Shown here piece after piece: positions 8,288 through 21,918 of a DNA stretch of 29,465 bases. The stretch is taken from IMG/VR virus record IMGVR_UViG_3300023281_000789, positions 1-29,465 of that record, one strand, 5' to 3'. Under the pieces are notes generated by a model that was not told where the DNA came from, searched no databases, and saw only the letters and a list, made by a program, of their open reading frames with translations. The translations under genes were made by a program, and so were the position numbers. Within the stretch, counting starts at the first letter, position 1; the number at the start of each line of letters is the position of its first letter. The DNA comes from a virus.

Positions 8288-8309
8288 AAGGGGAGTTCAC
8301 ACTCCCCTT
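8288..8309 (+). terminator. Hairpin after the capsid gene
   Basis: aaggggagt-tcac-actcccctt: a perfect 9-bp stem with a 4-nt loop. The T tail is short (ttt, partly inside the stem). Confidence 0.6.
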
Positions 8310-8361
8310 TATAACAAAAAGGTGAACAATAAAAAATAATAAAAAATAAAAACAAAATATT

Positions 8362-8883
8362 ATGGCATTTAATTGTATATTAGATAGTGGATATGTTTTA
8401 GATTGTAACTCAGTTGGTGGAGTTGAAAAAGTATGGTTAGGTACCTGGGATGGTGACACTACATACTCTTTTGACGTTGACTCTGTTGTTTCAGGAGCTA
8501 CTTCAGCAAACACTGTTTATAACTTTGAACAAGATATTGAATTCGCTGGTTTAGAACAAGCGGGACAATTCAGTAGAGAAAATGGTACTGTATTCTATGA
8601 ATCAAACCTATCTCTAAAATTTACGAATCTTGATAAAGATTTAAGAAATACGTTAGTCGCTATCGGTAGAGCACCGATATACGCAGTTGTAAAATCAAAC
8701 GCTGGTGAATACTACATCTTAGGTGTAGAGTCAGCGGGTAGAGCAACAGAAGGTGTAGCATCATTAGGAGTCGCTTTAGGTGATATGAATGGAGCCACAC
8801 TAACTATCCAATGGAAATCGGCTAGTGGTGCGTATCTATTAGACGAAGCGGTATTAGGAACGGATATTCCAGTAGCACCGTAA
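8362..8883 (+). CDS. Abundant virion protein, candidate major tail tube protein
   Basis: 173 aa. It is a single-gene unit bracketed by hairpin terminators 8288-8309 and 8924-8950, which implies high expression. No other ORF fits a tube protein. There is no motif I can name. Confidence 0.4.
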   Translation: MAFNCILDSGYVLDCNSVGGVEKVWLGTWDGDTTYSFDVDSVVSGATSANTVYNFEQDIEFAGLEQAGQFSRENGTVFYESNLSLKFTNLDKDLRNTLVAIGRAPIYAVVKSNAGEYYILGVESAGRATEGVASLGVALGDMNGATLTIQWKSASGAYLLDEAVLGTDIPVAP

Positions 8884-8923
8884 GGTTCTATGTAATCTCA
8901 ATATAGTTTTTCCGAACAATAGG

Positions 8924-8950
8924 AAGGGAGTCAATCGGCTCCCTTTTTTT
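8924..8950 (+). terminator. Rho-independent terminator
   Basis: aagggag(tc)-aatc-(gg)ctccctt followed by T7 (8944-8950). Confidence 0.8.
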
Positions 8951-9004
8951 ATGCAATCATAAACAAAATCAAACAATTTATATTTTATATAAAATAATAA
9001 GAAT

Positions 9005-9364
9005 ATGATTACTTTAAATCAAAACGAGGTAAATACTGTCATTTTAACATTGAACGAAAAGAAGGTTGGTAACAATCCATATTTCCTTCAACTATATTCT
9101 AATCAGAATAAGAATAATACGTTAATAAGTTTGACAGGAGACACTTCTACCAACGTTGTGAGGTATAACCGTTATGACGTAGATGAAAGTCCCTTAAATC
9201 TAATCGTAGGACAATATGATTACTTTGTACATCAATATAGTGGGGGTACAGTATCTCTATCAGCATCAACAAATATTGTAGAATCGGGTAAATGTGTTGT
9301 ATTTGGGACAGGTACTACAACTAATACGTTTACTAATAACAATGAAGAATATACATTTGTATAA
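9005..9364 (+). CDS. Hypothetical protein
   Basis: 119-aa ORF with an ATG start, followed 2 nt later by the portal gene start. No recognisable motif. Confidence 0.5.
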   Translation: MITLNQNEVNTVILTLNEKKVGNNPYFLQLYSNQNKNNTLISLTGDTSTNVVRYNRYDVDESPLNLIVGQYDYFVHQYSGGTVSLSASTNIVESGKCVVFGTGTTTNTFTNNNEEYTFV

Positions 9365-9366
9365 TT

Positions 9367-10443
9367 ATGGAAAAGGAAATAAAAAATAAGATTAAAATAT
9401 TTAACTTTAACGAAGCGTATGTCGCTCCAGAGTATAAATATAACAACAAAAGACACTTAATTGAATGGGGGAAGGATAATCAGTACCCTATATACCTATT
9501 GAACCTATATAACGCATATGGTTCTACTACTCATAAGAGTATTGTCAATAGAAAGGTTAAGTTAACAAGTGGACAAGGATGGGAAGATGTAAATAATCCT
9601 CAATTGGAGAAGTTTATGAAAGACAATAAACTCAATAAAGAGGTTAGAAAGGTATCTTTAGACTACGAATTGTACAATGGTTTTTGTTTAGAGGTTATAT
9701 ATAACAGAGAAGGTACTGAGATTAGTTCTTTAAAACACGTTCCTTTTCATAAAGTAAGGATAGGTATTCCAAATGACGAAATCAACTTTAACCATTATTG
9801 GTATTCTGATGATTGGAGTCAGTATAAAAAGAAAGGATATGAACCTTGTCTATACAGAGACTACAATCCATACCATACAACTGGTAAACAATTATACTAT
9901 CATAGTGAATATAACCCTCAAACTGATGGTTTATACCCAATTCCAGGTTACTCCACATCTATGAACTTCATTGAAATGGATTATGAGGTAGGTAAATTTC
10001 ACTTAAATCAAGTTAAACAAGGTTACGCACCATCGTTTATCTTAAACTTCGCCACAGGTATTCCTACAGAAGAAGAACAAGATGGTTTTTATAAAGAATT
10101 TAAACGTAATTATAGTGGTACGGATAACGCTGGTAAGATTATACTTACATATTCTGAGGGTGTAGAAGGAAAACCTGAGTTAATACCTATTCAATTAAAC
10201 GATTCTGATGATAGATTTATTCTATTACAAGAGATGATTGAAAGAAACATAGTTATGGGGGCAGAGATACCACCACAATTGGTAGTTCTTACACCTGGTA
10301 AGTTAGGTTCATCAGAAGAAAGAAACGAATTACAACAAGAATTTCAACAATCTTATATCTCACCTCGTCAAACAGTAATTGAAGAGGTATATAATGAGAT
10401 ATTAGGTACGGAAGAAATGATACTAAAAAAATACGAACAATAA
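9367..10443 (+). CDS. Portal protein (small, PBSX-type)
   Basis: WGKDNQYPIYLLNLYNAYGSTTHKSIVNRKVKLTSGQG, LDYELYNGFCLEVIYN, YPIPGYSTSMNFIEMDYE and FKRNYSGTDNAGKI follow the conserved blocks I associate with Phage_portal/PBSX-family portals. Confidence 0.6.
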   Translation: MEKEIKNKIKIFNFNEAYVAPEYKYNNKRHLIEWGKDNQYPIYLLNLYNAYGSTTHKSIVNRKVKLTSGQGWEDVNNPQLEKFMKDNKLNKEVRKVSLDYELYNGFCLEVIYNREGTEISSLKHVPFHKVRIGIPNDEINFNHYWYSDDWSQYKKKGYEPCLYRDYNPYHTTGKQLYYHSEYNPQTDGLYPIPGYSTSMNFIEMDYEVGKFHLNQVKQGYAPSFILNFATGIPTEEEQDGFYKEFKRNYSGTDNAGKIILTYSEGVEGKPELIPIQLNDSDDRFILLQEMIERNIVMGAEIPPQLVVLTPGKLGSSEERNELQQEFQQSYISPRQTVIEEVYNEILGTEEMILKKYEQ

Positions 10444-11018
10444 TGAGTAGAGTTAAGTTTATCAGTACAACCTTTTTAAAGGAACACAGTACATTAAGTA
10501 GAAATATTGATGATGATATCCTAATTCCCTATATCTATAGAGCACAGGACATCAATCTTCAACAAATATTAGGGACAACCTTTTACAATAGATTGGAACA
10601 AGGTGTAGTCAATAACGATTTAAATTCAGATGAAGAAGATTTGTTAAGAAATTACATCCAACAACTATTGGTAGAATGGACAACGTATTACGCAATACCT
10701 AATATCAATATGAAATTCACAAATAAGTCAGTTACACAGGACTCTTCTGAATTCGGTACACCATCATCGTTAGATGATATTAAGTATCTTAGACAAAACG
10801 TCAGAGATATGGCTGAGTTCTATTCTAAGAGGTTAACTACTTATATGTGTGACTTTGGTAATCAGAAGTTTCCACAATACGCTAATCCAGATTCTAACGA
10901 AAACTTAAGTAAAAGTGGTAGAGCGTATTTCAATGGTATATATATTCCAAATAGAACTCCAAATACTTATGGTATTAGAGTATATGACGACCCATCAGAT
11001 GATTGTCCAAACTGTTAA
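10443..11018 (+). CDS. Hypothetical virion protein (possible head-tail connector)
   Basis: ATGA-coupled to the portal gene. N-terminus FLKEHSTLSRNIDDDILIPYIYRAQDINLQQILGTTFY resembles gp6-like connector N-termini. The functional call is weak. Confidence 0.45.
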   Translation: MSRVKFISTTFLKEHSTLSRNIDDDILIPYIYRAQDINLQQILGTTFYNRLEQGVVNNDLNSDEEDLLRNYIQQLLVEWTTYYAIPNINMKFTNKSVTQDSSEFGTPSSLDDIKYLRQNVRDMAEFYSKRLTTYMCDFGNQKFPQYANPDSNENLSKSGRAYFNGIYIPNRTPNTYGIRVYDDPSDDCPNC

Positions 11019-11020
11019 TT

Positions 11021-11368
11021 ATGATACATCCATATTTAGAGTTTAAAGAATCGAAAATTCACCGTAATGGTGTATTTACACAAGGGGATTTAAAGATAGG
11101 GGAAAGAATAGAAAGGAGTTATTATACGGTATTGGATGTTGAATTAGAAAATTTGGATAGTATAACAAAACAGTATGTATTTAGTTATCCAAAACAAGGA
11201 GATAAATTAAGTTTGGTATGGGGGTTTGGTTCAATATATAACCACTCTAACCATCCAAATGTAGATTGGTACTATGATGGTGATGTTATAGTATGGGAAT
11301 GTATAAAAAATATTAATAAGGGTGAGGAATTAACCCACAATTATAAGAATACACAAAGAAAAAGATAG
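11021..11368 (+). CDS. Minimal SET-domain protein (putative lysine methyltransferase)
   Basis: 115 aa. HRNGVFTQGDLKIGERI (GxG/FA + GE block), GFGSIYNHSNHPNV (NHSxxPN) and KGEELTHNY (ELxxxY) occur in SET order and spacing. The architecture is close to the 119-aa PBCV-1 vSET (GFGAIFNHSKDPNA, GEEITISY, as I recall it). I prefer ATG 11021, just after the upstream stop, over the track's TTG 11003. Confidence 0.8.
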   Translation: MIHPYLEFKESKIHRNGVFTQGDLKIGERIERSYYTVLDVELENLDSITKQYVFSYPKQGDKLSLVWGFGSIYNHSNHPNVDWYYDGDVIVWECIKNINKGEELTHNYKNTQRKR

Positions 11369-11370
11369 AT

Positions 11371-12066
11371 ATGCCAGTAAGACATAAAAAAGACGGAGAT
11401 AAGTGTTACGCTCAATGGGGTAACCAACAGAAGTATTATTACCCTTGTGATTCTAAGATATCAAAAGAGAACGCAGAACGTAAAGCGGAGAAACAAGGTA
11501 GAATCATAGAGAGTAGAATTGGTGATAAGTATTCCAATGATACTTGTTGTACCGTAGATGAACATAAAGATTTGGTTGTTAATTATCTGGAAGAAAATGA
11601 TGTATGTATTAGTTTTGAGGAATTAGGTATTTCAGAAGAAGATGTATATAATTCAGAATACTTCTCAGAAGTCACTGAACAAGATATTGTAGACTTTGAG
11701 AAATTTGGTAAGGAAAACTTTAAACTGATTAAATTATATAGATACGTCTCTAATAAATATGGTTCGTCTAATATCGGACCTAACACTCGTCCATTCTGTA
11801 GAACACTCGCTTTGAGAACTTCCGCAGCGATGATGACGTGGGAATCCATAACCTATATGAATGGTATGAATCCTGGATTTGGTAAAGGTGGAGGAGACAG
11901 TTATTCGGTTTTCAATTATAGAGGTGGCAAGAATTGTGTTCATAAATGGGTTAAATATTTATACGACCCTCAAACAAATAATTTGGTTAAGGATGTCAAA
12001 CAACCCAATCAACAGACAGATTCTAATGGTGGAGTACCGGGAGCACCTAAACCTAAAAAACAATAA
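11371..12066 (+). CDS. MuF-like minor head / head-morphogenesis protein (candidate)
   Basis: The C-terminal half, GPNTRPFCRTLALRT...YRGGKNCVHKW, resembles the D.rtR..C..L.G ... H.nCrC signature of SPP1 gp7/Mu F domains. It lies in the portal neighbourhood. Confidence 0.4.
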   Translation: MPVRHKKDGDKCYAQWGNQQKYYYPCDSKISKENAERKAEKQGRIIESRIGDKYSNDTCCTVDEHKDLVVNYLEENDVCISFEELGISEEDVYNSEYFSEVTEQDIVDFEKFGKENFKLIKLYRYVSNKYGSSNIGPNTRPFCRTLALRTSAAMMTWESITYMNGMNPGFGKGGGDSYSVFNYRGGKNCVHKWVKYLYDPQTNNLVKDVKQPNQQTDSNGGVPGAPKPKKQ

Positions 12067-12090
12067 TAATACTATAAAAAACAAAAAAAA

Positions 12091-12456
12091 ATGAAAAGTA
12101 ATTTTGACAGTGATGTATTCACACAAACAGGAGGTCCAGAAGAAGGTATCGTAAAAATACAATATGATACTGATACAAGACTAATAAACGATATGTCAGT
12201 CGTAATACCTTATTTGGTAACTGACTATGGTTATACCGCATTATACGATTGGAGTACTTATGTATCCAACGCTAACCCACCATTTGACTTAGTTGGTAAA
12301 GCAATAAAGGAAATGGGTAGATGGTTTCGAGAAGATGGATTATGTGATGATTCACCAAAGGTATGTACACCATCTCGTAACAGACAAATGATTTTAACTG
12401 ATTTATGTAATGACGTAAATTATCAGTTTTATTTAGATGAAGCGAGAAACGCTTAA
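12091..12456 (+). CDS. Hypothetical protein
   Basis: 121-aa ORF and last gene before the structured region 12468-12511. No motif recognised. Confidence 0.55.
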   Translation: MKSNFDSDVFTQTGGPEEGIVKIQYDTDTRLINDMSVVIPYLVTDYGYTALYDWSTYVSNANPPFDLVGKAIKEMGRWFREDGLCDDSPKVCTPSRNRQMILTDLCNDVNYQFYLDEARNA

Positions 12457-12467
12457 AAAATCTTAAT

Positions 12468-12511
12468 GGGGTAGGGAACCAATAGTCACAACGACTCAGA
12501 CAATCTACCCC
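12468..12511 (+). terminator. Possible terminator / structured RNA
   Basis: ggggtag (12468-12474) pairs with ctacccc (12505-12511). The 30-nt loop contains an inner agtc...gact hairpin and is followed by ttt. Confidence 0.4.
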
Positions 12512-12562
12512 TTTAAAATAGTTTCATAGTTAATAATAACATATAGGAAAAACAAAAAAACT

Positions 12563-13222
12563 ATGGGAAGAACAACTTCACAATTTGACTTTTTTAAGAA
12601 AGTCTGTTTAGATGAAAACGGATTGTTATGTGGTATACAAGACGTTGTAGATGGATTACAGAATATTACATCAGTAGTCAGTGGTAATACGGTTGCCATA
12701 CAAAATATAGACATTAACGTACAATCTATCAATGAAGAGATGGTTGAGGTTAATTCTAATATTGAGGAATTAAACGGAATAGTAGGTGAGATACAAACTT
12801 GTGTATGTCCTCCAGAACCACCAACACCACCTACTCCAACCCCTACACCTACTCCAACTCCAAAAAAAAAGTGTTGTTGTAAGGTTCGTAAATGTACACC
12901 TCGTCCACCGAGATGTCCTCAGAATACAAAGAGTTGGGGAGGATGGACAATAGTAGTAGATAGAAGGTATCCCGATAAATACTATCCCAAACAAAAATAT
13001 ACCCCACCACCATCACCGAGATTATATCCACAATTACAAATACCTTATGGGTTTGAAAATGTAGATGGAACGTGGACTGATAGAGTACCATCAAAATATA
13101 TTGATAGTAACGGTAAGGTGATTACTGTCAGAGCCAAAGGATGGGTAGGACAACCAAATAAGTCACAAGCGTATAAACAAAAACCTGGAGTTACATATGT
13201 TAATTGGACACCAGTTAGGTAA
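12563..13222 (+). CDS. Fibre-like protein with coiled coil, PT linker, Cys cluster and basic aromatic C-domain
   Basis: 219 aa. The N-terminal QFDFFKKVCLDENGLL motif is shared with ORFs 25488 and 25283. Heptad-like repeats are followed by PPEPPTPPTPTPTPTPTP, KKKCCCKVRKCTPRPPRCP and a W/Y/P/K-rich domain. Hairpins flank the gene on both sides. Confidence 0.6.
   Translation: MGRTTSQFDFFKKVCLDENGLLCGIQDVVDGLQNITSVVSGNTVAIQNIDINVQSINEEMVEVNSNIEELNGIVGEIQTCVCPPEPPTPPTPTPTPTPTPKKKCCCKVRKCTPRPPRCPQNTKSWGGWTIVVDRRYPDKYYPKQKYTPPPSPRLYPQLQIPYGFENVDGTWTDRVPSKYIDSNGKVITVRAKGWVGQPNKSQAYKQKPGVTYVNWTPVR
12862..12870 (+). other. In-frame A9 homopolymer inside the fibre-like gene
   Basis: The tract c-aaaaaaaaa-g encodes (P)KKK between the PT linker and the Cys cluster. 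One extra A gives ...KKKVLL-stop. One fewer A gives a ~30-aa alternative tail. Confidence 0.9.
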
Positions 13223-13228
13223 AAAGAA

Positions 13229-13260
13229 AACCCTCTCACCAAAACGGAATAGAGAGGGTT
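13229..13260. terminator. Hairpin, possibly a bidirectional terminator
   Basis: aaccctctc-14 nt-gagagggtt is a perfect 9-bp stem. The T-rich tract (ttttcttttt) lies on the minus-strand side. On the + strand it is followed by atataa. Confidence 0.55.
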
Positions 13261-13322
13261 ATATAACATAACATACACATTGTAATATTAATGATTATTT
13301 AGGGTAAAGTAAATAGATAGTT

Positions 13323-13541
13323 ATGGAAAATAGTGAAGAGTTTGGTAAAGAGACTGATAAAATCAAAAAGGATATAAAGGATTTAACGAAGTCTTTAACT
13401 GATATACAAGACAAATGTACCCATAAAGATGGATACACTGTTAGATACCTTAATAAGAAGGTCTGTAGAGTATGTAACTTATGTGACAAAGACTTAGGTT
13501 ACGCATCTACAGACGAACTTAAATCTAATGGATTCCTATAA
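13323..13541 (+). CDS. Small Cys-containing protein (possible Zn-binding)
   Basis: 72 aa with an N-terminal charged helix, then C-x-H ... CRVCNLC. Confidence 0.5.
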   Translation: MENSEEFGKETDKIKKDIKDLTKSLTDIQDKCTHKDGYTVRYLNKKVCRVCNLCDKDLGYASTDELKSNGFL

Positions 13542-13615
13542 TGGAAGAGTTCACTAGATTTTTGGTATTCATAGGGATTCTGTTAATCATATTGATGTTC
13601 AGAAGAAAGGATTAG
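13541..13615 (+). CDS. 24-aa single-pass membrane peptide (below the ORF-track cutoff)
   Basis: Its ATG overlaps the upstream stop (TAATG). It encodes MEEFTRFLVFIGILLIILMFRRKD, a hydrophobic core with a basic tail. Its stop overlaps the stop of the convergent gene 13612-14604. Confidence 0.4.
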   Translation: MEEFTRFLVFIGILLIILMFRRKD

Positions 13616-14604
13616 TATTCTAATTTGAATTCTATATCAGTTGTCATCTTAACAATATTGAGAACTCTCTCTAAATCTGACTCTTTAAAGATAACTGAGT
13701 CGTGCATTGGTAGGAAGTCGATACTATTCATTCTTAACATCTGATATATGTCAGTCATTAATTTCGTCTCACACAACTGATAAATGTAATGAACCATCTT
13801 ATACCCATACTTCTCTTTAAAAGTCCTTAGAGAACTCCAAAAGTTACTTACATCCATATCTCTTAGTTGTTGTCTTTGGTGACAGAATACTTGTTTGAGT
13901 AATTCTTCTTTATTTAAACCAAATTCCCTCTCCATTTGTCCATAGAAATCGTTATATAAATCAATATCATAATTTCTTGATATACCTTCAATCTTATTTT
14001 TTGATAATAACTGGAATATAGAGAATTTAATATCTAATGATTTAGTTCTCTCACCACCAATCTTTAATCTTCTTCTATCATTCTTAGACATTTGTGAATA
14101 AGGGCCGTAGTATCTACCTCTTTTGTATTTGATATCAGTACCAATAGACTCACCATCCAAAGTAGTTCTACTTAGAGTTTCTTCAATCATCTCTGTTAAC
14201 CATTGGTATTCATCTTTTGTTTTAATTTTATTATATAATGAATTAAGATATCTATTTTCTTGTAATGTTTTACTCATCTTACTATCAGATACAGTCTTAT
14301 CAATCTCAAAAATGTTTGGTGAAGACACATATTGTTGTGTACCATCTTCAAATCTAATTTTGATAGTAGAGGATTGTTTTTTCATTTTAATGAATCCATC
14401 ATCTAATAAAACGTTTGTGAAGTCTTTGGCTTTATCTGTAAACGCTAACCTTAGAACTCTTTGAGATACTTTACCCTTCATCTTTGTAATTAGGTAAGAA
14501 TACGTTTCTAATACTTGTTCGTAATTGATACGAGGTGATTTGATTGGTTCACCTGTTTTAGAAAGGTAGGTGTGTCCTTTTAGTTTTTCAATAGTTTTTT
14601 CCAT
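13612..14604 (-). CDS. Only minus-strand gene: replication/transcription-initiation candidate with polymerase-like motifs
   Basis: 330 aa. KRGRYYGP (aa 161-168), LDIKFSIFQLLS (190-201) and FLPMHDSVIF (297-306) occur in the order of the T/DxxGR, A and C motifs of Pol A / T7-like polymerases. It is divergent from the early operon across a region holding two class I elements. Coding is confident; function is not. Confidence 0.75.
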   Translation of the reverse strand: MEKTIEKLKGHTYLSKTGEPIKSPRINYEQVLETYSYLITKMKGKVSQRVLRLAFTDKAKDFTNVLLDDGFIKMKKQSSTIKIRFEDGTQQYVSSPNIFEIDKTVSDSKMSKTLQENRYLNSLYNKIKTKDEYQWLTEMIEETLSRTTLDGESIGTDIKYKRGRYYGPYSQMSKNDRRRLKIGGERTKSLDIKFSIFQLLSKNKIEGISRNYDIDLYNDFYGQMEREFGLNKEELLKQVFCHQRQQLRDMDVSNFWSSLRTFKEKYGYKMVHYIYQLCETKLMTDIYQMLRMNSIDFLPMHDSVIFKESDLERVLNIVKMTTDIEFKLEY

Positions 14605-14700
14605 TTTGTTTGTATTTTAAATTATGTTATATTAATAAATATACAGTAATTTTCAAAAGTTGTCAATATTATAAAAAAAGTTTTATTTTTTTTTGATTAG

Positions 14701-14718
14701 AATCCTACACACTATAAT
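14701..14718 (+). promoter_or_regulatory. Class I element AATCCTACACACTATAAT (plus orientation, faces the early operon)
   Basis: Exact 18-mer shared with 21014-21031, 25220-25237 and rc(1094-1111). Confidence 0.65.
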
Positions 14719-14778
14719 AGTAAGTAAGTACAAATACATAATAATATATATAAATTATATTATTGTTTCTATCCCTTC

Positions 14779-14796
14779 ATTATAATGTGTAGGAAA
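14779..14796 (-). promoter_or_regulatory. Class I element variant TTTCCTACACATTATAAT (minus orientation, faces gene 13612-14604)
   Basis: 15/18 match to the core. The downstream leader, GAAGGGATAGAAACAATAAT, parallels GAATAGGTAGAAACATAAAT after the 21014 copy. Confidence 0.55.
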
Positions 14797-14829
14797 AAAC
14801 AAAACCAAATACTGAATATTTATATATAT

Positions 14830-14979
14830 ATGAGATTAGGAGATATAATAGAAAAAATAACAATCATTACAGGTATTAAGAGATTCACCAATTGGGTAAC
14901 AGGTAATTCCTGTGGTTGTGATAACAGAAAAGAAAAACTAAATAGATTATGGGACAGAGTAAGAGGCAAGAAGAATTAA
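14830..14979 (+). CDS. Small hypothetical protein (CGC motif)
   Basis: MRLGDIIEKITIITGIKRFTNWVTGNSCGCDNRKEKLNRLW. I prefer ATG 14830 because the track start at 14785 lies inside class I element 14779-14796. Confidence 0.5.
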   Translation: MRLGDIIEKITIITGIKRFTNWVTGNSCGCDNRKEKLNRLWDRVRGKKN

Positions 14980-15137
14980 GAAAGGATACCAATATCATTA
15001 AATTCACACTGATATCTAAAAAGATTATTCCCAGTGACAAAGAATATATCAAATTGATAGAGGATGAATTAGAGACATTGAAGATGAACTTCGAAAAAAT
15101 AACAAAAGATTTAAATGAGATGAGAGGAAAAATATGA
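14949..15137 (+). CDS. Hypothetical small protein, ATGA-coupled to the sigma-like gene
   Basis: 62-aa charged helical ORF. Its stop overlaps ATG 15134 (ATGA). It overlaps the upstream ORF by 31 nt, so the start is uncertain. Confidence 0.4.
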   Translation: MGQSKRQEELRKDTNIIKFTLISKKIIPSDKEYIKLIEDELETLKMNFEKITKDLNEMRGKI

Positions 15138-15850
15138 GAGATGAAGAACTATTAGGACATATCAAAGAAAGAATAACAAAGAATCCTTACTACTACCAAA
15201 TAAAAGATGAGACAGATAGACAAACTATCATCAACGATTTATTTATTAATGTATGGGAAAAGATTCAAAAAGGTGAGATGATACCTAAGTGGGAAGAAAT
15301 AAAGGGTTATGTATTTATATCTGGAAGAAATAATTGTTTAAAGTATCTAAGAGATAAACAAAGACATACCAATACGTCCGTAGACATAGATATAAGTGAT
15401 TCTAACAACTTTAGATACGATGATGGTACAGATACTATGGAATACTTCAATAGACAAGAGGAGATGTTAGAATTCTTAAATAATAATATTGACGAAGGTA
15501 TAGATAAAGTATTATTTGATTTAAGAAGAGAAGGTATGACTCTACCAGAGATATCAGAATACCTCAATATGGACTTATATCAATTGGAAAAGATTAACCG
15601 TACTGTTATAAGATATCTAAGAAGCAGATGGTTTTATCCAGATTGGAAGAATAGAAAAGGTAAATGGGGTGATGGTAATGATTTTTTCTATAGAGTTTTT
15701 GATACATATAAGAATACGGAAAAAGATTATACTGTAAAAGCAAGAATATGTGAAGATATAGATATCAAACAGAACTCTATTAATAACCATATAGGCAACG
15801 GTAAACTAATAAAAGGAAGATATTATGTAAAAATTATAAAAAAAAAGTAA
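15134..15850 (+). CDS. Sigma-70/ECF-like factor with a C-terminal NUMOD1-like extension
   Basis: Region-2-like DLFINVWEKIQ...GYVFISGRNNCLKYLRDKQRH. Region-4-like VLFDLRREGMTLPEISEYLNMDLYQLEKINRTVIRYLRS. The extra ~70 aa, YRVFD...YTVKARICEDIDIKQNSINNHIGNGKLIKGRYYVK, resemble NUMOD1/IENR1 HTH modules of homing endonucleases. Confidence 0.6.
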   Translation: MRDEELLGHIKERITKNPYYYQIKDETDRQTIINDLFINVWEKIQKGEMIPKWEEIKGYVFISGRNNCLKYLRDKQRHTNTSVDIDISDSNNFRYDDGTDTMEYFNRQEEMLEFLNNNIDEGIDKVLFDLRREGMTLPEISEYLNMDLYQLEKINRTVIRYLRSRWFYPDWKNRKGKWGDGNDFFYRVFDTYKNTEKDYTVKARICEDIDIKQNSINNHIGNGKLIKGRYYVKIIKKK

Positions 15851-15860
15851 AATAAATCAG

Positions 15861-15886
15861 ACTTTTAAAAATTTCTACATATTTAT
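15861..15886 (+). promoter_or_regulatory. Class II element copy a (ACTTTTAAAAATTTCTACATATTTAT)
   Basis: 23/26 identical to 15975-16000. It is followed by TATAAT (15886-15891) and lies between the sigma gene stop and terminator 15918-15953. Confidence 0.5.
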
Positions 15887-15917
15887 ATAATGAGTTTAAT
15901 AAATTTATGTTAAGAGA

Positions 15918-15953
15918 CCCCTAAGATTTCCCATTTTTCTTAGGGGTTTTGTT
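15918..15953 (+). terminator. Rho-independent terminator
   Basis: cccctaag-13 nt-cttagggg followed by ttttgtt. Confidence 0.8.
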
Positions 15954-15974
15954 ATTAATTTAAAGTTTTTTTGA

Positions 15975-16000
15975 ACTTTTGGAAATTACTACATATTTAT
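15975..16000 (+). promoter_or_regulatory. Class II element copy b (ACTTTTGGAAATTACTACATATTTAT)
   Basis: Contains TTTG, a Bacteroidota -33-like element. It is followed by TAGTATAAT and lies 35 nt upstream of ATG 16035. Confidence 0.5.
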
Positions 16001-16034
16001 TAGTATAATAACATAAATTAAAACACACACAACA

Positions 16035-16496
16035 ATGGGTACAACATTTAAAGAGTACGAAACAAGAGAAAGAAAATTTATGGATTGGTACATCAATATG
16101 AAACCAGAACATAAAATGGAAGAAGAGTCAGAGATTGGTTCATTCAAAAGAAATGATTTTATAATGATGAGTGGTAACTCATACGTAATGGGAGAAGTAA
16201 AGGTAAGAACATTCGACCACGATAAGTATCCAACCGCAGTTATAGAGTTAGATAAGGTGAACGCACTGATGGAACTATTCCAACCATATAATCAAATGGG
16301 TAAAGACGTTAACAAATTATATTACTACGCAGCGTATCCGATGAGTCGTAAAGTCCTAATATTTGACATTATAAAGACTCCTACGACACTTTCATACGAA
16401 TGGTGTCCTATCGCTACCGCTGGACCGAATAGAGGTAGTAAATGGAAAGCGATGGTAAACTATAAAATTGAAGACGCTATAGTATTAGAATATTAA
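16035..16496 (+). CDS. PD-(D/E)xK-like nuclease (candidate)
   Basis: 153 aa. An N-terminal acidic helix, then NDFIMMSG...VMGEVKVRT, gives a D...(E)xK arrangement typical of the restriction-endonuclease fold. Confidence 0.4.
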   Translation: MGTTFKEYETRERKFMDWYINMKPEHKMEEESEIGSFKRNDFIMMSGNSYVMGEVKVRTFDHDKYPTAVIELDKVNALMELFQPYNQMGKDVNKLYYYAAYPMSRKVLIFDIIKTPTTLSYEWCPIATAGPNRGSKWKAMVNYKIEDAIVLEY

Positions 16497-16522
16497 TAAC
16501 AACTAAAATAAAAAAAGGAAAA

Positions 16523-16762
16523 ATGACAAAAGAAGAAGTAGTAAATTTAACAAAACAAGTATCAACATTAAACTCATTATTAACATCAACGTTAGTAAGA
16601 ATGAAAAAAGGTGAAGAGATATTCATAGAGGATATTGATGTATTGACAGATGAAGTAGAGAAATTAGATGAAGAGATATCATACACCAAATATCTAATGT
16701 TTAGATACAATGAGATTGAAGGGGAAGACATAACCATAAAAAAACAACAATTAAATGATTAA
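16523..16762 (+). CDS. Hypothetical early protein
   Basis: 79-aa helical acidic ORF. It overlaps the next gene by 8 nt. Confidence 0.5.
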   Translation: MTKEEVVNLTKQVSTLNSLLTSTLVRMKKGEEIFIEDIDVLTDEVEKLDEEISYTKYLMFRYNEIEGEDITIKKQQLND

Positions 16763-17279
16763 TGATGAATTTGAAGACCACATAGACAAGATATTGGCTA
16801 AGTGGGTAGAAATAGACGAACAGATGAAAGAGTATACAAGTAAATATAGAGATGAACATTGGGAGAGTTTGATACAAAAACACCTCAATGGTAAGGATAT
16901 GTCAGATGACTTATATAACTTCCTTAGAGATGAATTAAATGATGTCTTTGATAGATGTCATTTAAAATATAATATGATGAATCTATTTGAATTGGAAGCA
17001 GATGAATTAGAGAAGTCACACGATAAGTCAATAGATATATTATACAACCTACTGACAAAGGTGACAACAACATTAGTAATATTCAATAAGATGGAGAAAT
17101 ATGAAGAGTCCAAAGTATTACATACACAGTTAAAAGATTTATATATATTGATTAATTGTGGAATTTCTTTGGAATATACCTCACCAAAACTATTAACAAA
17201 AGAGTTTTATCAATTGTTTGAGAACACTACAGATGTAATAACTGAAACAAAATACTTTAAAGATTATATAAATAAATAA
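16755..17279 (+). CDS. Hypothetical acidic early protein
   Basis: 174-aa ORF, D/E-rich and helical. No motif recognised. Confidence 0.55.
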   Translation: MINDEFEDHIDKILAKWVEIDEQMKEYTSKYRDEHWESLIQKHLNGKDMSDDLYNFLRDELNDVFDRCHLKYNMMNLFELEADELEKSHDKSIDILYNLLTKVTTTLVIFNKMEKYEESKVLHTQLKDLYILINCGISLEYTSPKLLTKEFYQLFENTTDVITETKYFKDYINK

Positions 17280-17283
17280 AAGA

Positions 17284-17838
17284 ATGGAATTAACTATAGA
17301 AAAGAGAGAAGTGAAAATAAACGACATACTTAAAGAGATTACAACGGAGGGTACCATATGGGATGAGATTATTGAGAATATAATACATCCCAATTCTCAT
17401 TTAAAACCAGAACTAATAAGTGAGATATCATTAGGATACTTAGAAAATAAAGAAAAGATAGAGGGAGTATGGGAAAAAGGATATTTCAAATATTACTTCA
17501 TTAAGACGGTTACAAACCAAATAAGGAGTAAGACATCCAGTTTTCATAAAAACATCCGTATAACTGATTATAGTACCTTTGACGATGGTGTAGACATTAT
17601 GGATGAAAGTAATAATGATGATATACTACAGAAGATAGAAAAAGAACATAAATTAGGTACAATAAAACATATACTAAATAGATTACCAATCAGCTGGTTT
17701 GAACATCAGATGTTTAATGAGTATTATTTCAACAATAGAACATATAGGAATATAGAGGAAGAATATAGTTTAGACCACGTATTAGTATGGAAAACAGTAA
17801 AGAAGGTAAGGGAGATGGTAATAAATGAATTAAAATAA
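17284..17838 (+). CDS. Second sigma-70/ECF-like factor
   Basis: Region-2-like GYFKYYFIKTVTNQIRSKTSSFHKNIR. Region-4-like LPISWFEHQMFNEYYFNNRTYRNIEEEYSLDHVLVWKTVKKVREMV. Confidence 0.5.
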   Translation: MELTIEKREVKINDILKEITTEGTIWDEIIENIIHPNSHLKPELISEISLGYLENKEKIEGVWEKGYFKYYFIKTVTNQIRSKTSSFHKNIRITDYSTFDDGVDIMDESNNDDILQKIEKEHKLGTIKHILNRLPISWFEHQMFNEYYFNNRTYRNIEEEYSLDHVLVWKTVKKVREMVINELK

Positions 17839-17843
17839 GGAAA

Positions 17844-18956
17844 ATGATTATAGAAGAGATTATAGAGTATAAAGATGATTTAGTAAGATGGTATGATTCA
17901 ATAGAGAATATCGTTGATTATTTCATTTATAAAAAAGAAGAAAAGGTAGAGAACCTAAATAACTTACATATTGGTAAAGATATGTTTAATGATTGGACAA
18001 TGGAACCAAAGGATATGGATATTAGTATAGAAGTAACTGATGGTAGTTTTCATAACCTACATACCCAAACAGTATGTTCAATGCCATTGGAATCACAAAT
18101 AGGTAGACAAGTTAATATAGGGATAAAAGAAAACAAAACTGGTAAATGGTTAGGGTTTACGAGAATAGCGTCACCAATATTAAGTATCAGACCTCGTAAT
18201 GAGATGTTTGGACAACAAGTAGATAATAAATTAGTTAATCAACATATGGTGAATGGATGTCAAATCATTCCTGTACAACCATTTGGATATAATTGTTTAG
18301 GAGGTAAGTTAATTGGTTTAATAAGTAATTCACACGAAGTAAGAGATATCTACAATAAGAAGTATAATACTAATGTTATACATTGGGAAACTACTTCACT
18401 ATATGGTGATATAAAGAACGTAAGTCAATACGATGGATTAAAACCATTTATTAGATATATAGGAATGACAGAGAGTAATAACTTTCTATTCCCTACCAAT
18501 AAGGTATATTATCCACTCTTAGACGCTTTCAGAGAATATTATGGTATGGAGGAATGGGATGGACGTTTAGTTAGTCCTAAAGGAAGTGGTCCTAAGATGA
18601 GAGAGTTTACAAAAGTGATATCAATTATAAAGTCAAATCTTAAACAATGGGATGAAGAACAATATAATGAGTTCCATAAATTCACAAAAGAGAAAATGAA
18701 GTCATTTACCAAAAAACGTTTCTATTACTCTAATTATGGATATGAGAATGTTATAGAACATATAACAAAAGGTGAAGAACTAAGAGAAGGACAGAACTTC
18801 CATAAACATAAATTAGATTATATAATAGAATGGTGGAAGAAGAAAGCACAGAAGAGATGGGAGAAACTAAATAGAGAAGGTAGAATAAGAACTGAATTAG
18901 AGATATATACCAAAGATACGGTAATGAATAAAGATAGAAACGATATAATAAGATAA
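17844..18956 (+). CDS. GNAT-like / DUF4338-like protein (candidate)
   Basis: 370 aa. IIPVQPFGYNCLGGKLIGLISNSHEVRDIYNKKYNTNVIHWETTSLYGD...YDGLKPFIRYIGMTES resembles, from memory, the P.v..NL.S..L ... Y ... ETFVd ... Y.a.nW...G.T.G core of DUF4338 (DruA-type) proteins. Confidence 0.35.
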   Translation: MIIEEIIEYKDDLVRWYDSIENIVDYFIYKKEEKVENLNNLHIGKDMFNDWTMEPKDMDISIEVTDGSFHNLHTQTVCSMPLESQIGRQVNIGIKENKTGKWLGFTRIASPILSIRPRNEMFGQQVDNKLVNQHMVNGCQIIPVQPFGYNCLGGKLIGLISNSHEVRDIYNKKYNTNVIHWETTSLYGDIKNVSQYDGLKPFIRYIGMTESNNFLFPTNKVYYPLLDAFREYYGMEEWDGRLVSPKGSGPKMREFTKVISIIKSNLKQWDEEQYNEFHKFTKEKMKSFTKKRFYYSNYGYENVIEHITKGEELREGQNFHKHKLDYIIEWWKKKAQKRWEKLNREGRIRTELEIYTKDTVMNKDRNDIIR

Positions 18957-19141
18957 TGGAAGATAAAGAAAGAAATACAAAGATAATCTCAATCATAATG
19001 TTGGTTGGGATTCTTTACATTCTATGGGGTAATGTAAAATATAAAGAAACGATAAACCAAATGGAACTCCAGTTACAAGACACAGAACAAAAATATATTG
19101 ATATTCAACATAAAATAGACAGTATCAAAACAAAACTATAA
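18956..19141 (+). CDS. Single-pass membrane protein with coiled-coil tail
   Basis: 61 aa with TM segment IISIIMLVGILYILWG followed by a Q/E/K-rich helix. ATGG/TAATG-type coupling to the upstream gene. Confidence 0.5.
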   Translation: MEDKERNTKIISIIMLVGILYILWGNVKYKETINQMELQLQDTEQKYIDIQHKIDSIKTKL

Positions 19142-19171
19142 AATTTATATTTAATAATAAACTATATAACA

Positions 19172-19456
19172 ATGGAAATAAACGATTATAAAGAATCACA
19201 AAGATTATTCTCTTTAAGTAGATTTACTAAAGAAGACGCTTTCTCATTACAGACACTAATGAATAAGTATGTTGATAAACATTGTGTAGTGTGTGGTAAG
19301 TGTAGAGGACAAATAAGGTTCACCATTAAGAGATATAAGAATTGGTTTAACCATAACAATATCACTGTAGACGAAGTAAAAGAGACTAAAGGTACTTGTA
19401 CAGAGTGTGGTACTAAACTAAACGATAAGAGACGAAAGAAGTGTAAAGACTGTTAA
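19172..19456 (+). CDS. Zinc-ribbon protein
   Basis: 94 aa with CVVCGKC and CTECG...CKDC Cys pairs. It lies directly upstream of TerS. Confidence 0.5.
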   Translation: MEINDYKESQRLFSLSRFTKEDAFSLQTLMNKYVDKHCVVCGKCRGQIRFTIKRYKNWFNHNNITVDEVKETKGTCTECGTKLNDKRRKKCKDC

Positions 19457-19457
19457 G

Positions 19458-19844
19458 ATGACATTGAAACAACGACAATTTATTAAAGAATACTTAGGTA
19501 ATGGTGGTAACGCTACACAAGCGGCCATCGTATCTGGTTACAGTAAAAAGACTGCGTATTCGAGTGGACAACGGTTGTTGAAACAGGTTGAAATCAAAAA
19601 ACAGATAGATGAACATCAACAAAGACTTCTTAAAGACTCAGATACAAAGGTTACGGATTTATTAAATATATTGAAAGAGATTACGGAAAACGAAATGGAA
19701 AGACGACCTACCGCATCAATCAAAGCCATAGAGGTGATGTGTAAAATATTAGGTTTAAACGCCACAGAGAAACAGGAAATCACTCATCAGTATCAACCCT
19801 TATTCGGACCGAAGAAAGATGATAAGGATGGAGGAACAAAATAA
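19458..19844 (+). CDS. terS: Terminase small subunit (Terminase_2 / P27-type)
   Basis: LKQRQFIKEYLGNGGNATQAAIVSGYSKKTAYSSGQRLLKQVEIKKQI is the classic N-terminal HTH signature of this family. It overlaps TerL. Confidence 0.85.
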   Translation: MTLKQRQFIKEYLGNGGNATQAAIVSGYSKKTAYSSGQRLLKQVEIKKQIDEHQQRLLKDSDTKVTDLLNILKEITENEMERRPTASIKAIEVMCKILGLNATEKQEITHQYQPLFGPKKDDKDGGTK

Positions 19845-21015
19845 ATTCGTCTATACAACCGCTATAGATAAAATCAGAGATTTAAGTAAGAGAAAAAAAA
19901 TTATACAAGGAGGAACATCCGCTGGTAAAACTTTCGGTATTCTCCCCATTCTCATAGACAGAGCCATCAAAGAACCAAACTTAGAGATAAGTATAGTATC
20001 AGAGAGTGTCCCTCACCTCCGTAGAGGATGTCTCAAAGACTTTCTAAAGATAATGGAACTAACCCATAGGTTTAACTCAGAAGACTTTAATAAGACACAT
20101 TTAAAATATAAATTTCATAATGGGAGTTATATAGAATTTTTTAGTGTTGATGATGAATCCAAACTCAGAGGGGCGAGAAGAAATATTCTCTATATCAATG
20201 AAGCGAACAATGTATCCTATGAAGCGTACCTACAATTATCTATTCGTACCAACAAAGATATCTATATCGATTTCAACCCTACCCATAGATTTTGGGCACA
20301 CAATGAAGTATTAAAGGAAGAGGATTCAGAGTTACTCATTCTTACCTATTTGGATAATGAGGCGTTAGACCCTCAGATAGTTAAACAATTAGAGATAAAC
20401 AGAGATAAAGGTATTACATCAAATTATTGGTACAACTGGTGGAAAGTTTATGGTGAAGGTTCTATCGGGACTTTAGAGGGCGTCATCTTTGATGATTGGA
20501 ATGAGGTAGATAAGATACCTATGGACGCTAAACTAATTTGTTATGGAATGGATTTTGGGTTTACCAACGACCCCAGTTCCCTTATTGGTTTGTATAAGTA
20601 TAACGATGAATTAATTATCGATGAGGTATTCTATAGGAAAGGGTTGTTAAACTCCGACATATCGAATATAATGAAGTCTGAGGGGATTGTAGGAGAAGTG
20701 TTCGCTGATAGTAGTGAACCTAAATCTATACAAGAGTTAAAAAGGTACGGACATAATGTTAAACCTGTAACCAAAGGTAAGGATAGTATTATCTTTGGAA
20801 TTAATATCTTACAACAATACCCCCTTAAGATAACTAAACGTTCTGTAAATCTTAAAGATGAATTAACCAAATATAACTGGAAGAAAGATAAAGAGGGTAA
20901 TACACTTAATGTTCCAATCGATTCACACAATCACGCTATTGACGCTATGAGGTATGGAGCGATGATGAAGTTAGGTAAGAGAACCACAGGTACACGTCCA
21001 TTTAGAATTGGATAA
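19819..21015 (+). CDS. terL: Terminase large subunit (PBSX/Terminase_3-like)
   Basis: Walker A-like IQGGTSAGKTFGILP, Walker B-like ILYINEAN, and a C-terminal nuclease block MDFGFTNDPSS ... DSHNHAIDAMRY. An alternative start is at ATG 19828. Confidence 0.9.
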   Translation: MIRMEEQNKFVYTTAIDKIRDLSKRKKIIQGGTSAGKTFGILPILIDRAIKEPNLEISIVSESVPHLRRGCLKDFLKIMELTHRFNSEDFNKTHLKYKFHNGSYIEFFSVDDESKLRGARRNILYINEANNVSYEAYLQLSIRTNKDIYIDFNPTHRFWAHNEVLKEEDSELLILTYLDNEALDPQIVKQLEINRDKGITSNYWYNWWKVYGEGSIGTLEGVIFDDWNEVDKIPMDAKLICYGMDFGFTNDPSSLIGLYKYNDELIIDEVFYRKGLLNSDISNIMKSEGIVGEVFADSSEPKSIQELKRYGHNVKPVTKGKDSIIFGINILQQYPLKITKRSVNLKDELTKYNWKKDKEGNTLNVPIDSHNHAIDAMRYGAMMKLGKRTTGTRPFRIG

Positions 21016-21031
21016 TCCTACACACTATAAT
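21014..21031 (+). promoter_or_regulatory. Class I element AATCCTACACACTATAAT (plus orientation); extended 36-bp copy at 21014-21049
   Basis: Starts inside the TerL stop codon. It lies 64 nt upstream of ATG 21096. Confidence 0.65.
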
Positions 21032-21067
21032 GAAGAAGAAGAATAGGTAGAAACATAAATAGGATAA

Positions 21068-21084
21068 TAATATTTATAATAAAA
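21068..21084 (+). promoter_or_regulatory. Class III element TAATATTTATAATAAAA
   Basis: 17/17 identical to 27404-27420. It ends 11 nt before ATG 21096. Confidence 0.5.
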
Positions 21085-21095
21085 GGAAAAGACAT

Positions 21096-21695
21096 ATGAT
21101 AAAAGTAAATTTTAATATTGATGATGATACACAATCATTCAATGTCCCAGAGAATTGGGATGAGGTTACTGTAGAACAATTTATGGAATTAGTAGAATTA
21201 CAGAACAACGCTAAAGAAGAGAAGAACCCTCTTAACACCGTTATAAAGATGACACATATAATGACAGGTATACCAATGGACATCATAGAGATGGTACCAG
21301 TAGACCAATTTCATTTAATACAAGATACTCTATTGTATACCAAAGAAGAGGTGAATATAGAGAAGAGTGATTATGTAGAGATAGATGGTGATACGTATTG
21401 GGTTAAGAATGATTTTAATAAATTAACAATGGGTGAAACGATTACGATTGAAACATTGATTAAGGACACCCCTAATGAGAACGTTATGAATGTGTTCGAT
21501 AAATTATTAACAGTCTTTTTAAGAAAGAAAACTAAAAAGGGTAATTTAGAATCCTTTAAATCTTCATTCTTAGAAGAGAGAGTAGAGGTATTTAGGAGGT
21601 TACCAATATCACAGGTATACGCCATTATGGTTTTTTTTTCAGATGGCGGGAATGGATTAGAGGTTCCTACAAATCATTATTCGGAAAACCAATAA
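21096..21695 (+). CDS. Tail assembly chaperone, short (G-like) form
   Basis: 199 aa. YVEIDGDTYWVKNDFNKLTMGETITIE resembles the v.i.G..y.l....n core of TAC proteins. It contains a T9 slippery tract 19 codons before its stop. Confidence 0.55.
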   Translation: MIKVNFNIDDDTQSFNVPENWDEVTVEQFMELVELQNNAKEEKNPLNTVIKMTHIMTGIPMDIIEMVPVDQFHLIQDTLLYTKEEVNIEKSDYVEIDGDTYWVKNDFNKLTMGETITIETLIKDTPNENVMNVFDKLLTVFLRKKTKKGNLESFKSSFLEERVEVFRRLPISQVYAIMVFFSDGGNGLEVPTNHYSENQ

Positions 21696-21916: not shown

Positions 21917-21918
21917 AT

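Follow-up and report, generated by a model that had tools for sequence, protein, structure and literature searches.

An 18-nt promoter-like element of a small uncultured phage and its possible pairing with a phage-encoded minimal family-A polymerase

A stretch of viral DNA of 29,465 nucleotides (nt; IMG/VR virus record IMGVR_UViG_3300023281_000789, analyzed at its full length and called the window below) carries five copies of the 18-mer AATCCTACACACTATAAT or a close variant, two of which face each other beside the gene of a polymerase-like protein of 330 amino acids (aa). Judged by sequence comparison, the element is conserved, phage-specific and probably functional, and its anatomy is promoter-like. 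With a probability of about 0.42 we consider it to be the cognate initiation site of the phage's own 330-aa enzyme, a protein confidently modelled as a winged helix fused to a minimal, TV-Pol-like family-A polymerase core.

A preliminary description, made from the sequence alone, had reported four exact copies and one variant matching at 15 of 18 positions, more than chance would allow, all of them between genes, two starting in a preceding stop codon and two placed face to face. A sequence scan of the window bore out each of these points:

14701–14718, plus strand: copy I, exact; the right-pointing arm of the inverted pair, directed toward the early operon and followed by AGTAAGTAAGTA
14779–14796, minus strand: copy II, a variant with three mismatches (TTTCCTACACATTATAAT); the other arm of the pair, directed leftward to the 330-aa gene and followed by GAAGGGATAGAAAC
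21014–21031, plus strand: copy III, exact; begins within the stop codon of terL; downstream come a purine run, an AAACA-N19-TATAAT motif and the 199-aa gene
25220–25237, plus strand: copy IV, exact; begins at the last base of the stop codon of the 776-aa gene, upstream of the 59-aa and 613-aa genes
1094–1111, minus strand: copy V, exact; directed to the left and antisense to the 1012-aa tail gene at its 3' end

The number of matches expected by chance is 0.15, and none of 100 shuffled sequences reached five. All five copies are intergenic; the TAA of terL occupies 21013–21015 and contains the start of copy III, and that of the 776-aa gene occupies 25218–25220. A weight matrix built from 40 instances of the element revealed no additional sites above noise in the window. 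A degenerate look-alike with five mismatches (TAACATACACATTGTAAT, 13269–13286, plus strand) lies upstream of a 72-aa gene; its matrix score is within noise, and the region around it is kept in two related contigs (L077 and L079).

All five positions and orientations are kept across more than 20 related metagenomic contigs (cited by L numbers), which were collected through exact-match scans and look-ups of 330-aa homologues in IMG/VR, JGI, ENA, Logan and Tara Oceans. Orthologues of copy I occur in L067–L079, L081, L088, L091, L098 and L101, and the TTT prefix of copy II as well as the C/T at its position 12 are seen again at the same place in relatives. Copy III is exact in relatives of 81–99% DNA identity, in which the 18-mer plus GAAG at the terL stop is invariant and a 12-nt indel follows immediately downstream. 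Copy IV is kept in L006, L072, L084, L089 and L102. Four of the five copies point at downstream genes, in line with the earlier observation that they are directed at the next transcription unit; the fifth, the 'wrong-way' copy V, keeps its position and strand in L082, L089 and L094 and is thus not an accident. Copy V lies 4 nt from the AAACA of a bipartite motif that precedes the 416-aa gene, and the copies at 1094 (minus) and 21014 (plus) have 36 nt in common. In 185,579 bacterial and archaeal species genomes the motif is essentially missing, with a single chance match. It is therefore not host-derived, and a host promoter or a prophage remnant as its source was discarded on the same result. 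Single exact 18-mers in L002, L004 and about 12 metagenome loci were likewise put down to chance; these loci show no gene similarity.

An information profile of 42 non-redundant instances confirmed the proposal that conservation forms one contiguous block instead of –35 and –10 boxes with a spacer: the information is limited to one sharp block at positions 1–18 and is near zero upstream. Positions 1–3 are W, positions 4–11 are invariant or nearly so, and CCTAC, C10, A11, TATA and T18 are invariant. A purine (G in 32, A in 10) occupies position 19 of every one of the 42 instances, and 87% of the bases at positions 19–28 are purines. The full unit spans about 19–30 nt and consists of W-W-T, CCTACACA, Y-TATAAT, an obligatory purine and a purine run. 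TATAAT itself is present in all five copies of the window. Across relatives the TATA part varies (TATAAT, TATAGT, TATAAC, TATATAT, ATATAAG), with distant-lineage variants such as AAACCTACTCAYTATAAT in L074 and L076, a copy ending in TATAGT in L072 and AATCCTACACATATATAT in L104. Compared with known promoter classes, the element has the contiguous block of T7-group single-subunit RNA polymerase promoters (about 17–23 nt in which a specificity block and TATA lie between an AT-rich 5' edge and a purine start) as well as a hexamer close to the sigma-70 consensus TATAAT. No –35 element is conserved 16–18 nt upstream in the 42 instances, and an extended –10 of the TGn type was not found, since CAC or CAT precedes the hexamer.

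The resemblance to T7 and SP6 promoters that had been noticed holds for the architecture. Like the promoters of T7, SP6 and K11, the element is a contiguous block of about 20 nt with an AT-rich, swap-tolerant 5' edge, an invariant specificity block, a TATA box, a purine start and a purine-rich initial region, and it recurs in identical copies within one genome. Eight of its nucleotides, ACACTATA, equal a stretch of the SP6 promoter. This identity does not reflect homology: the stretch is lost in sister lineages (...ACATATATAT, ...GGCATATAAG), and the box TATAAT is two bases longer than that of SP6. An inverted-pair core is also not known from T7-group phages. The RNA polymerase of about 800–900 aa that reads T7-group promoters was not found: as had been stated, no canonical T7-type RNA polymerase, and likewise no helicase or primase, turned up among the products covered by Pfam and PHROG scans of the complete genome. 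Of the gene products of at least 119 aa, these scans covered all but the eight encoded at 6030–6458, 8362–8883, 9005–9364 and 10443–11018 and, further on, at 11003–11368, 12091–12456, 21919–22422 and 22401–22877. Specifically, the 776-, 613-, 971- and 1012-aa products gave no polymerase match in either database; in PHROG the 971-aa product has weak tape-measure and endolysin-family matches and the 1012-aa product falls into a family of unknown function. Lacking a T7-type polymerase among the scanned products, the element stands outside the T7 group, and lacking a –35 box it stands outside the sigma-70 class.

The sole polymerase-like gene found in the genome scans is that of the 330-aa protein:

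13612–14604, minus strand: gene of the 330-aa protein; N-terminal winged helix (about residues 1–100) followed by a minimal family-A polymerase core

That this protein is polymerase-like had been suggested from its motifs and is now backed by residue conservation, a confident model and a match to a solved polymerase. The core residues are the beta-hairpin R164, D191, K232 and H301-D302, and ten close homologues have GRYY, S.DI...QLLS.N, K232 and LP.HD in common. None of ten scanned members of the family matched a Pfam family. A profile search of 1.84 billion cluster representatives yielded 168 relatives at E ≤0.001, which share the C-terminal 160 residues. In an alignment of 125 sequences D191, K232 and D302 are invariant and R164, R177, Y221, E279 and H301 nearly so, R164 being conserved in at least 90%. 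A first structure model from 10 sequences (predicted local distance difference test, pLDDT, of 68) gave non-significant fold matches and was replaced by an AlphaFold model from the 125-sequence alignment, with a pLDDT of 93.9 and a predicted template modeling score (pTM) of 0.86. In this model, which has the overall fold of family-A polymerases, R164 sits in hairpin 159–166, D191 ends strand 185–192 and H301-D302 lie at the turn of hairpin 297–307. The top solved structure in a Foldseek search is KlenTaq (4bwm_A, probability 0.98, E = 1.2e-3), followed by an apicoplast family-A polymerase and then by reverse transcriptases. Among predicted viral structures, matches reach 2e-10 with phage proteins of 400–450 aa, some of them named DNA polymerase. 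In a profile comparison, motifs A, B and C align with Pol theta (whole-sequence E = 0.11), while the N-terminus aligns with winged helices of the MarR type (E = 0.02).

TV-Pol was defined as a minimal family-A core with a hairpin Arg, two palm Asp and inserted fingers carrying RxxxK, with predicted primase and polymerase activity (Iyer, Abhiman and Aravind 2008, PMC2579912). The 330-aa protein possesses the hairpin Arg and the two catalytic palm Asp. A D5-like helicase neighbor, which accompanies TV-Pol, was not found among the scanned products. By the described features, the likeness to TV-Pol and PolA-type primases extends to the helices before the Arg-bearing beta-hairpin, the lack of exonuclease domains, the residence on a virus or mobile element and the proposed role in priming; of the RxxxK motif of the inserted fingers, the Lys is invariant and the Arg is missing in the window's clade. 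The differences are the size (330 aa compared with 400–600), the fusion to a winged helix and the lack of a D5-like helicase or single-stranded DNA-binding partner. In the CcPol-MP complex of the staphylococcal cassette chromosome SCCmec, an A-family catalytic domain was experimentally shown to be a primase (Rice 2023, PMC10061031). CcPol-MP differs in that it primes single-stranded DNA, and the introduction of that paper mentions no cognate duplex site. Family-A DNA polymerases exclude ribonucleotides through a glutamate, and since this glutamate is not at the aligned position of the 330-aa protein, the enzyme may use ribo- or deoxyribonucleotides.

Copies I and II face each other with their TATA ends inward, beside the 330-aa gene. 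Two further features of this region are:

14719–14778, no strand: spacer between the arms of the pair; 60 nt, 18% GC
14638–14666, minus strand: host-type promoter for the 330-aa gene, TTGACA-17-TATATT, 11 of 12 matches; located on the gene's side of copy I

In the middle of the spacer A and T alternate, and a purine run, read on the respective strand, borders it at either end, which makes it a candidate unwinding region. A face-to-face pair adjoins the gene in every contig that was collected through a 330-aa homologue (39–92% identity) and has sufficient upstream DNA. The spacer measures 60–63 nt in L069, L070, L077, L079, L104 and L106, 70 nt in L067, 39 nt in L074 and 90 nt in L076. In L074, L076 and L109 the pair stands alone within 10–14 kb, without solitary copies; the pair and the 330-aa gene therefore constitute the core module. 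On this comparison, we regard the pair as the ancestral core and the three solitary copies as confined to the clade of the window. The arrangement typical of an origin, namely repeated sites that flank an AT-rich region beside an initiator gene and co-vary with it, is thus present, the co-variation with one independent switch. No DnaA boxes were found at up to one mismatch in the intergenic region 14605–14829 that holds the pair.

The host-type promoter of the 330-aa gene is kept in relatives. It recurs within the window: 65 nt upstream of the 330-aa gene (14602–14675, minus strand) and of a 153-aa gene (15955–16037, plus strand) are 85% alike, and this block comprises the host-type promoter and the entire leader to the ATG. 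The two blocks are probably two immediate-early promoters. In L068, L069, L070 and L091 an extra open reading frame for a very basic protein of 38–41 aa (MKKIIVTIEEIQ...KKYYRK...) separates the pair from the promoter of the polymerase-like gene; the window has no such reading frame. On the other side of the pair, 33 nt before the first early gene (14804–14836) are 85% identical to 27319–27351 (plus strand) at the end of the 613-aa gene, before a strong terminator. Among known phage arrangements, coliphages 186 and P2 also have two start sites facing each other about 60 bp apart between divergent early units. There, however, the two are distinct sigma-70 promoters of a lysis-lysogeny switch rather than one sequence in inverted copies, and the scanned products of the window showed neither an integrase nor a repressor.

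Co-variation of the element with phage genes across related genomes had been put forward as a check. The element is kept in more than 20 contigs, and its specificity block differs where the winged helix has diverged, which happened once. In L106 and L109 the homologue of the 330-aa protein is 13% identical in the winged helix and 35% in the polymerase part. Its pair is a perfect 21-nt inverted repeat, AAAAGGGGGGCATATAAGCAG, with the arms 62 nt apart and followed by a host-type promoter and the gene. Each arm combines an A-rich edge with a specificity block of its own, followed by a TATA-like box and G. The layout is retained but the specificity block is another one, which is suggestive of an element that tracks the 330-aa protein. 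L104, whose homologue is 34% identical, keeps the helix motif LR..FTD and keeps the block AATCCTACACA. When IMG/VR was scanned for the L109-type arm, only L109 itself and one chance match were found.

Taken together we propose the following mechanism. The host RNA polymerase would make the 330-aa protein from the gene's own promoter; because this host-type promoter is conserved, the enzyme can be made first. Its winged helix would then bind the duplex at the outer half of the site (WWT-CCTACACA), melting would set in at the TATA(A/T) box next to it, and the polymerase core would start a chain de novo at the invariant purine, so that a pyrimidine-rich template yields a purine-rich product. At the inverted pair this would give primers on both strands across the AT-rich spacer, and host polymerases would elongate them, because no other replication gene was found in the phage. 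The pair would most likely be a bidirectional replication origin. The three solitary copies may serve as extra start sites for priming, transcription or both; between primers and mRNAs as the product at the sites, we lean to primers at about 60:40 within this reading. All solitary copies are oriented along the forks that would leave the pair (plus at 21.0 and 25.2 kb, minus at 1.1 kb), an agreement expected by chance in 1 of 8 cases and thus weak evidence. The length of the element matches the footprint expected for a 38-kDa protein and not that of a sigma holoenzyme. Moreover, the variation of the TATA part fits a melting box better than a sigma –10, since a –10 needs fixed A and T positions.

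The preliminary description had suggested an undescribed phage transcription system, which is partly supported. A conserved promoter-like element and a polymerase-like protein are indeed present, but the genes have other candidate promoters, and replication initiation is at least as likely as transcription given the likeness to TV-Pol-like primases and the universally conserved inverted pair around an AT-rich spacer beside the gene.

Several observations weigh against initiation by the 330-aa enzyme. Two of the solitary copies lie exactly where promoters of the downstream genes would sit, and the perfect conservation of TATAAT within the clade would also be expected of a –10 element. The matches to solved structures are marginal in E-value (1.2e-3 in Foldseek, 0.11 for the profile). 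The Arg of motif B is absent in the window's clade, where RxxxK reads FGLNK; the family consensus is RxxxK, and K232 is invariant. No pair was found in the 309 nt available upstream of the gene in L108, which like L107 has too little upstream sequence, nor in the Pinkberry virus, which carries a more distant member of the family. The co-variation amounts to one independent specificity switch, and because the loci were fetched via the 330-aa protein, its co-occurrence with the element is partly by construction. Finally, every lineage of sufficient sequence length contains a sigma-like gene, so co-occurrence cannot exclude a sigma factor.

This last point leads to the strongest of the alternatives, which we nevertheless rate as unlikely: the copies would be phage-specific promoters for the host core RNA polymerase together with a phage sigma-like protein. 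The early block encodes two such proteins:

15134–15850, plus strand: 238-aa sigma-like protein; PHROG sigma factor match at 4.7e-7 and a weak match to a LuxR-type helix-turn-helix
17284–17838, plus strand: 184-aa sigma-like protein; no family match of its own

Profile searches against solved structures with the two proteins returned weak LuxR-type helix-turn-helix matches or nothing. On this alternative, TATAAT would serve as the –10 and the preceding 12 nt as an extended –10 of unusual length. The most plausible reader would be the 184-aa protein, produced early from the host-type promoter upstream of the 153-aa gene. The middle transcripts would be those of the 238-aa sigma operon, of the block from the 199- to the 776-aa gene and of the 59- and 613-aa genes, with additional 330-aa transcripts and, at 1111, an antisense RNA. 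Such a scheme accounts for the perfect –10 hexamer at the end of the element, for the four of five copies that point at downstream genes and for the sigma genes themselves, which are also found in L074 and L076. The three motif classes (host-type, 18-mer and AAACA-N19-TATAAT) would fit a cascade from the host sigma to two phage sigmas. Single-block, –10-only promoters are moreover known for the diverged phage sigmas T4 gp55 and phiEco32 gp36, which act on the host core enzyme. Their promoters (the T4 late promoter TATAAATA with gp55, and those of gp36) are likewise –10-like without a –35 box, but they span 8–9 nt, whereas the present element has 12 more invariant bases, the obligatory purine and the inverted-pair rule.

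The phage sigmas can be assigned to another sequence more easily. A second, bipartite motif, AAACA-N18-20-TWTAATAAA, which the preliminary description does not mention, occurs in the window in four exact copies compared with 0.03 expected, and in looser form at five further places:

1116–1149, 6466–6498, 21051–21083 and 27387–27419, plus strand: bipartite motif, exact
5350, 8961, 14800, 19128 and 25245, plus strand: bipartite motif, looser form

At all nine places the motif is on the plus strand and ends 7–16 nt before a start codon, the genes being those for the tail, 416-aa, protease, scaffold, 119-aa, 94-aa, 199-aa, 59-aa and 49-aa proteins. The exact form is kept within the clade at the orthologues of the 416-aa, scaffold, 119-aa, 199-aa and tail genes and was not found in L074, L076 and L109. 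Two copies come after hairpin terminators (27352–27376 and 8924–8945), where the motif would probably restart transcription. It is probably either a phage-sigma promoter class or a conserved leader. Both sigma-like proteins look like two-domain (sigma2 plus sigma4) factors, which normally read bipartite promoters, so that AAACA-N19-TATAATAAA is a more plausible target for them than the 18-mer. A bipartite motif follows the 18-mers at 21014 and 25220 after 19 and 7 nt, respectively; the genes downstream consequently do not need the 18-mer as a promoter. The copies at 1111 (minus) and 14796 (minus) are 4 and 3 nt away from a bipartite motif, in inverted orientation. A fixed-distance activator site for the bipartite motif was rejected, as both the distance (3–19 nt) and the orientation vary.

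Further evidence speaks against a sigma factor as the reader. For any sigma, 18 contiguous invariant bases without a –35 box would be atypical, and two of the variants, TATATAT and ATATAAG, are without the positions that are usually fixed in a –10. The 238-aa protein, one of the readers considered earlier, has to be dropped: its gene is missing from L072, which keeps four copies and has no assembly gap there. The helix-turn-helix of this protein resembles sigma region 4. The L076 orthologue of the 184-aa protein is 33% identical (Sigma70_r4_2 at 0.0024, below the curated cut-off), and L074 encodes a different sigma (Sigma70_r2 at 1.7e-5, phrog_351 at 6e-19); despite this divergence and replacement, the element retains 15–16 of its 18 bases in both contigs. 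A sigma factor also leaves unexplained why an inverted pair spaced by about 60 bp adjoins the polymerase-like gene.

Improbable in our view is that the copies are operators only, with no chain start. Neighboring promoters, namely the gene's own host-type promoter and the AAACA-N19-TATAAT promoters, would then be repressed or insulated by the winged helix of the 330-aa protein or by a different regulator of the phage. The 18-mer lies 3–19 nt from the AAACA of a bipartite motif at four of the five copies and in either orientation, and the pair is upstream of the protein's own promoter, similar to the autoregulatory operators of plasmid Rep proteins, which lie upstream of their own promoters. Co-variation with the N-terminal domain would fit binding as well as initiation. 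Pure binding, however, would require neither the asymmetry of the site nor its conserved TATA box, nor the obligatory purine and the purine run on one specific strand. Furthermore, the distance of 3–19 nt to the neighboring motif is altered by the 12-nt indel between close relatives, and the 330-aa protein retains all catalytic residues.

Ordinary host promoters, in which the housekeeping sigma reads TATAAT and the upstream block is kept for a secondary reason, are very improbable even though the hexamer is perfect and the sites are intergenic, because both the –35 box and the TGn extension are lacking, the clear host-type promoters of the phage look different (TTGACA-17-TATATT), the likely flavobacterial host uses another promoter type (the main sigma of flavobacteria recognizes TTTG / TAnnTTTG), the motif is essentially absent from bacterial genomes and the block is wholly replaced in L109. 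A pac/cos or terminase site was rejected, since terS is not close to the copies and such a site would leave the TATA and purine anatomy unexplained; so was a recombination site, as no recombinase was found among the scanned products.

Returning to initiation by the 330-aa enzyme, the closest functional parallels are found among origins. The Rep proteins of ColE2-type plasmids are origin-specific primases of about 300 aa, encoded beside a short duplex origin, that make a primer at a fixed position which host polymerases elongate. Our proposal has the same elements: an initiator beside its origin, sequence-specific binding, a short primer and elongation by the host. It differs from ColE2 Rep in the catalytic domain, which is not a family-A palm there, and in the number of sites, with one origin per replicon there and a pair plus three solitary copies here. 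At promoter-primed origins, such as the T7 primary origin (promoters 1.1A/1.1B plus an AT-rich region), ColE1 RNA II and the mitochondrial light-strand promoter, a promoter-like site also lies beside an AT-rich region, and a purine-rich transcript would form a stable hybrid usable as a primer. These origins depend on full-size RNA polymerases, whereas the candidate here is a minimal polymerase of 330 aa. In the literature searched we found no description of a winged helix joined to a minimal family-A polymerase with a cognate duplex site. We therefore regard the element and the protein as a variant within polymerase and primase start sites and origins whose pairing is new to that literature.

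The window comes from a small tailed phage without a close cultured relative, and its bases 1–55 are identical to bases 29411–29465; it is thus a complete circular or terminally redundant genome of about 29.41 kb (about 29,410 bp), with the 1012-aa tail gene (27428..1056) spanning the junction. The GC content is 32%, and all genes but one are on the plus strand. Structural genes encode a tape-measure-like protein, a protease, a capsid protein and a portal. The early block (14830–19456) encodes the 238-aa and 184-aa sigma-like proteins and a Mom/DruA-like protein and is followed by terS and terL. The transcription units are bounded by strong hairpin terminators:

27352–27376, plus strand: hairpin terminator after the 613-aa gene, with a 10-bp stem and a T run
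8288–8309: hairpin terminator after the capsid gene
8924–8945: hairpin terminator after the 173-aa gene

No known RNA families or tRNA were found. The Mom/DruA-like protein of 370 aa (17844–18956, plus strand) matches Pfam DruA at 5e-11 and phrog_19197 at 3e-86. Similar proteins (35–42% identity) exist in T4-like cyanophages and in pelagiphage HTVC008M, one of them annotated as a Mom methylcarbamoylase. The 370-aa protein is possibly a DNA-modification protein; its gene is missing from some relatives (L069, L072, L077). A 121-aa protein (11003–11368, plus strand) has orthologues in L067, L070 and L073 that carry the Pfam domain SET (lysine methyltransferase), which is unusual in the structural block of a small phage.

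The nearest cultured relative of TerL (19819–21015) comes from Flavobacterium psychrophilum phages, with 55% identity. Start codons lack a Shine-Dalgarno sequence and are preceded by A-rich or TAAAA stretches. From this combination the host is probably a marine flavobacterium, a member of the Bacteroidota. Against cultured phages, a megablast search with 25 kb gave no match, tblastn gave none for the 238-aa or the capsid protein, and tblastn with the 330-aa protein returned one match, which was not significant (E = 0.4). In IMG/VR, no matches were obtained for the 238-aa protein, alignment A2, P0016 and P0014. Relatives retrieved through TerL (L010–L066, 55–61% identity) have the structural genes in common and are without the 330-aa gene, the sigma-like genes and the element. 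Some of these carry tandem 12-mers that are iteron-like and unrelated to the 18-mer, TTGACTACAACA in 4–5 copies and AGGGGGTTCGGT in 3 copies:

L035, 2967–3030: tandem 12-mer array
L040, 1738–1790: tandem 12-mer array
L047, 333–368: tandem 12-mer array
L051, 1081–1116: tandem 12-mer array

A more distant minimal family-A member of 434 aa is encoded by gene 150 of Aeromonas phage 4L372D (L110), of which the annotated genes were inspected, and occurs in Aeromonas phages of 120–140 kb; the depositors noted a similarity of its product to a hypothetical protein of Vibrio phage ICP1. With this member, the minimal family-A polymerase family extends to cultured, tractable phages.

Should the copies be sigma-dependent promoters after all, they would belong to a three-class promoter program of uncultured marine phages, probably of flavobacteria, that are present in Tara Oceans and other metagenomes. 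If the link between the element and the 330-aa protein holds, it would reveal a new way for a very small phage to start DNA synthesis, with a family-A core aimed at duplex DNA by a winged helix, and it would supply a defined substrate for the widespread TV-Pol-like proteins. A polymerase-site pair of about 38 kDa and 19 bp could also serve biotechnology. In a broader and more doubtful form of this idea, the 330-aa family would contain the smallest known sequence-specific, de novo initiating single-subunit polymerases, with an 18-bp T7-like duplex promoter and a fixed purine start. Its members would act as origin primases and perhaps as middle-gene transcriptases, and would represent a minimal, ancestor-like form of the lineage of T7 RNA polymerase and Pol I with portable specificity. 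The pairing would thereby bear on the origin of RNA-polymerase-like promoter recognition in the superfamily of Pol I and T7 RNA polymerase.

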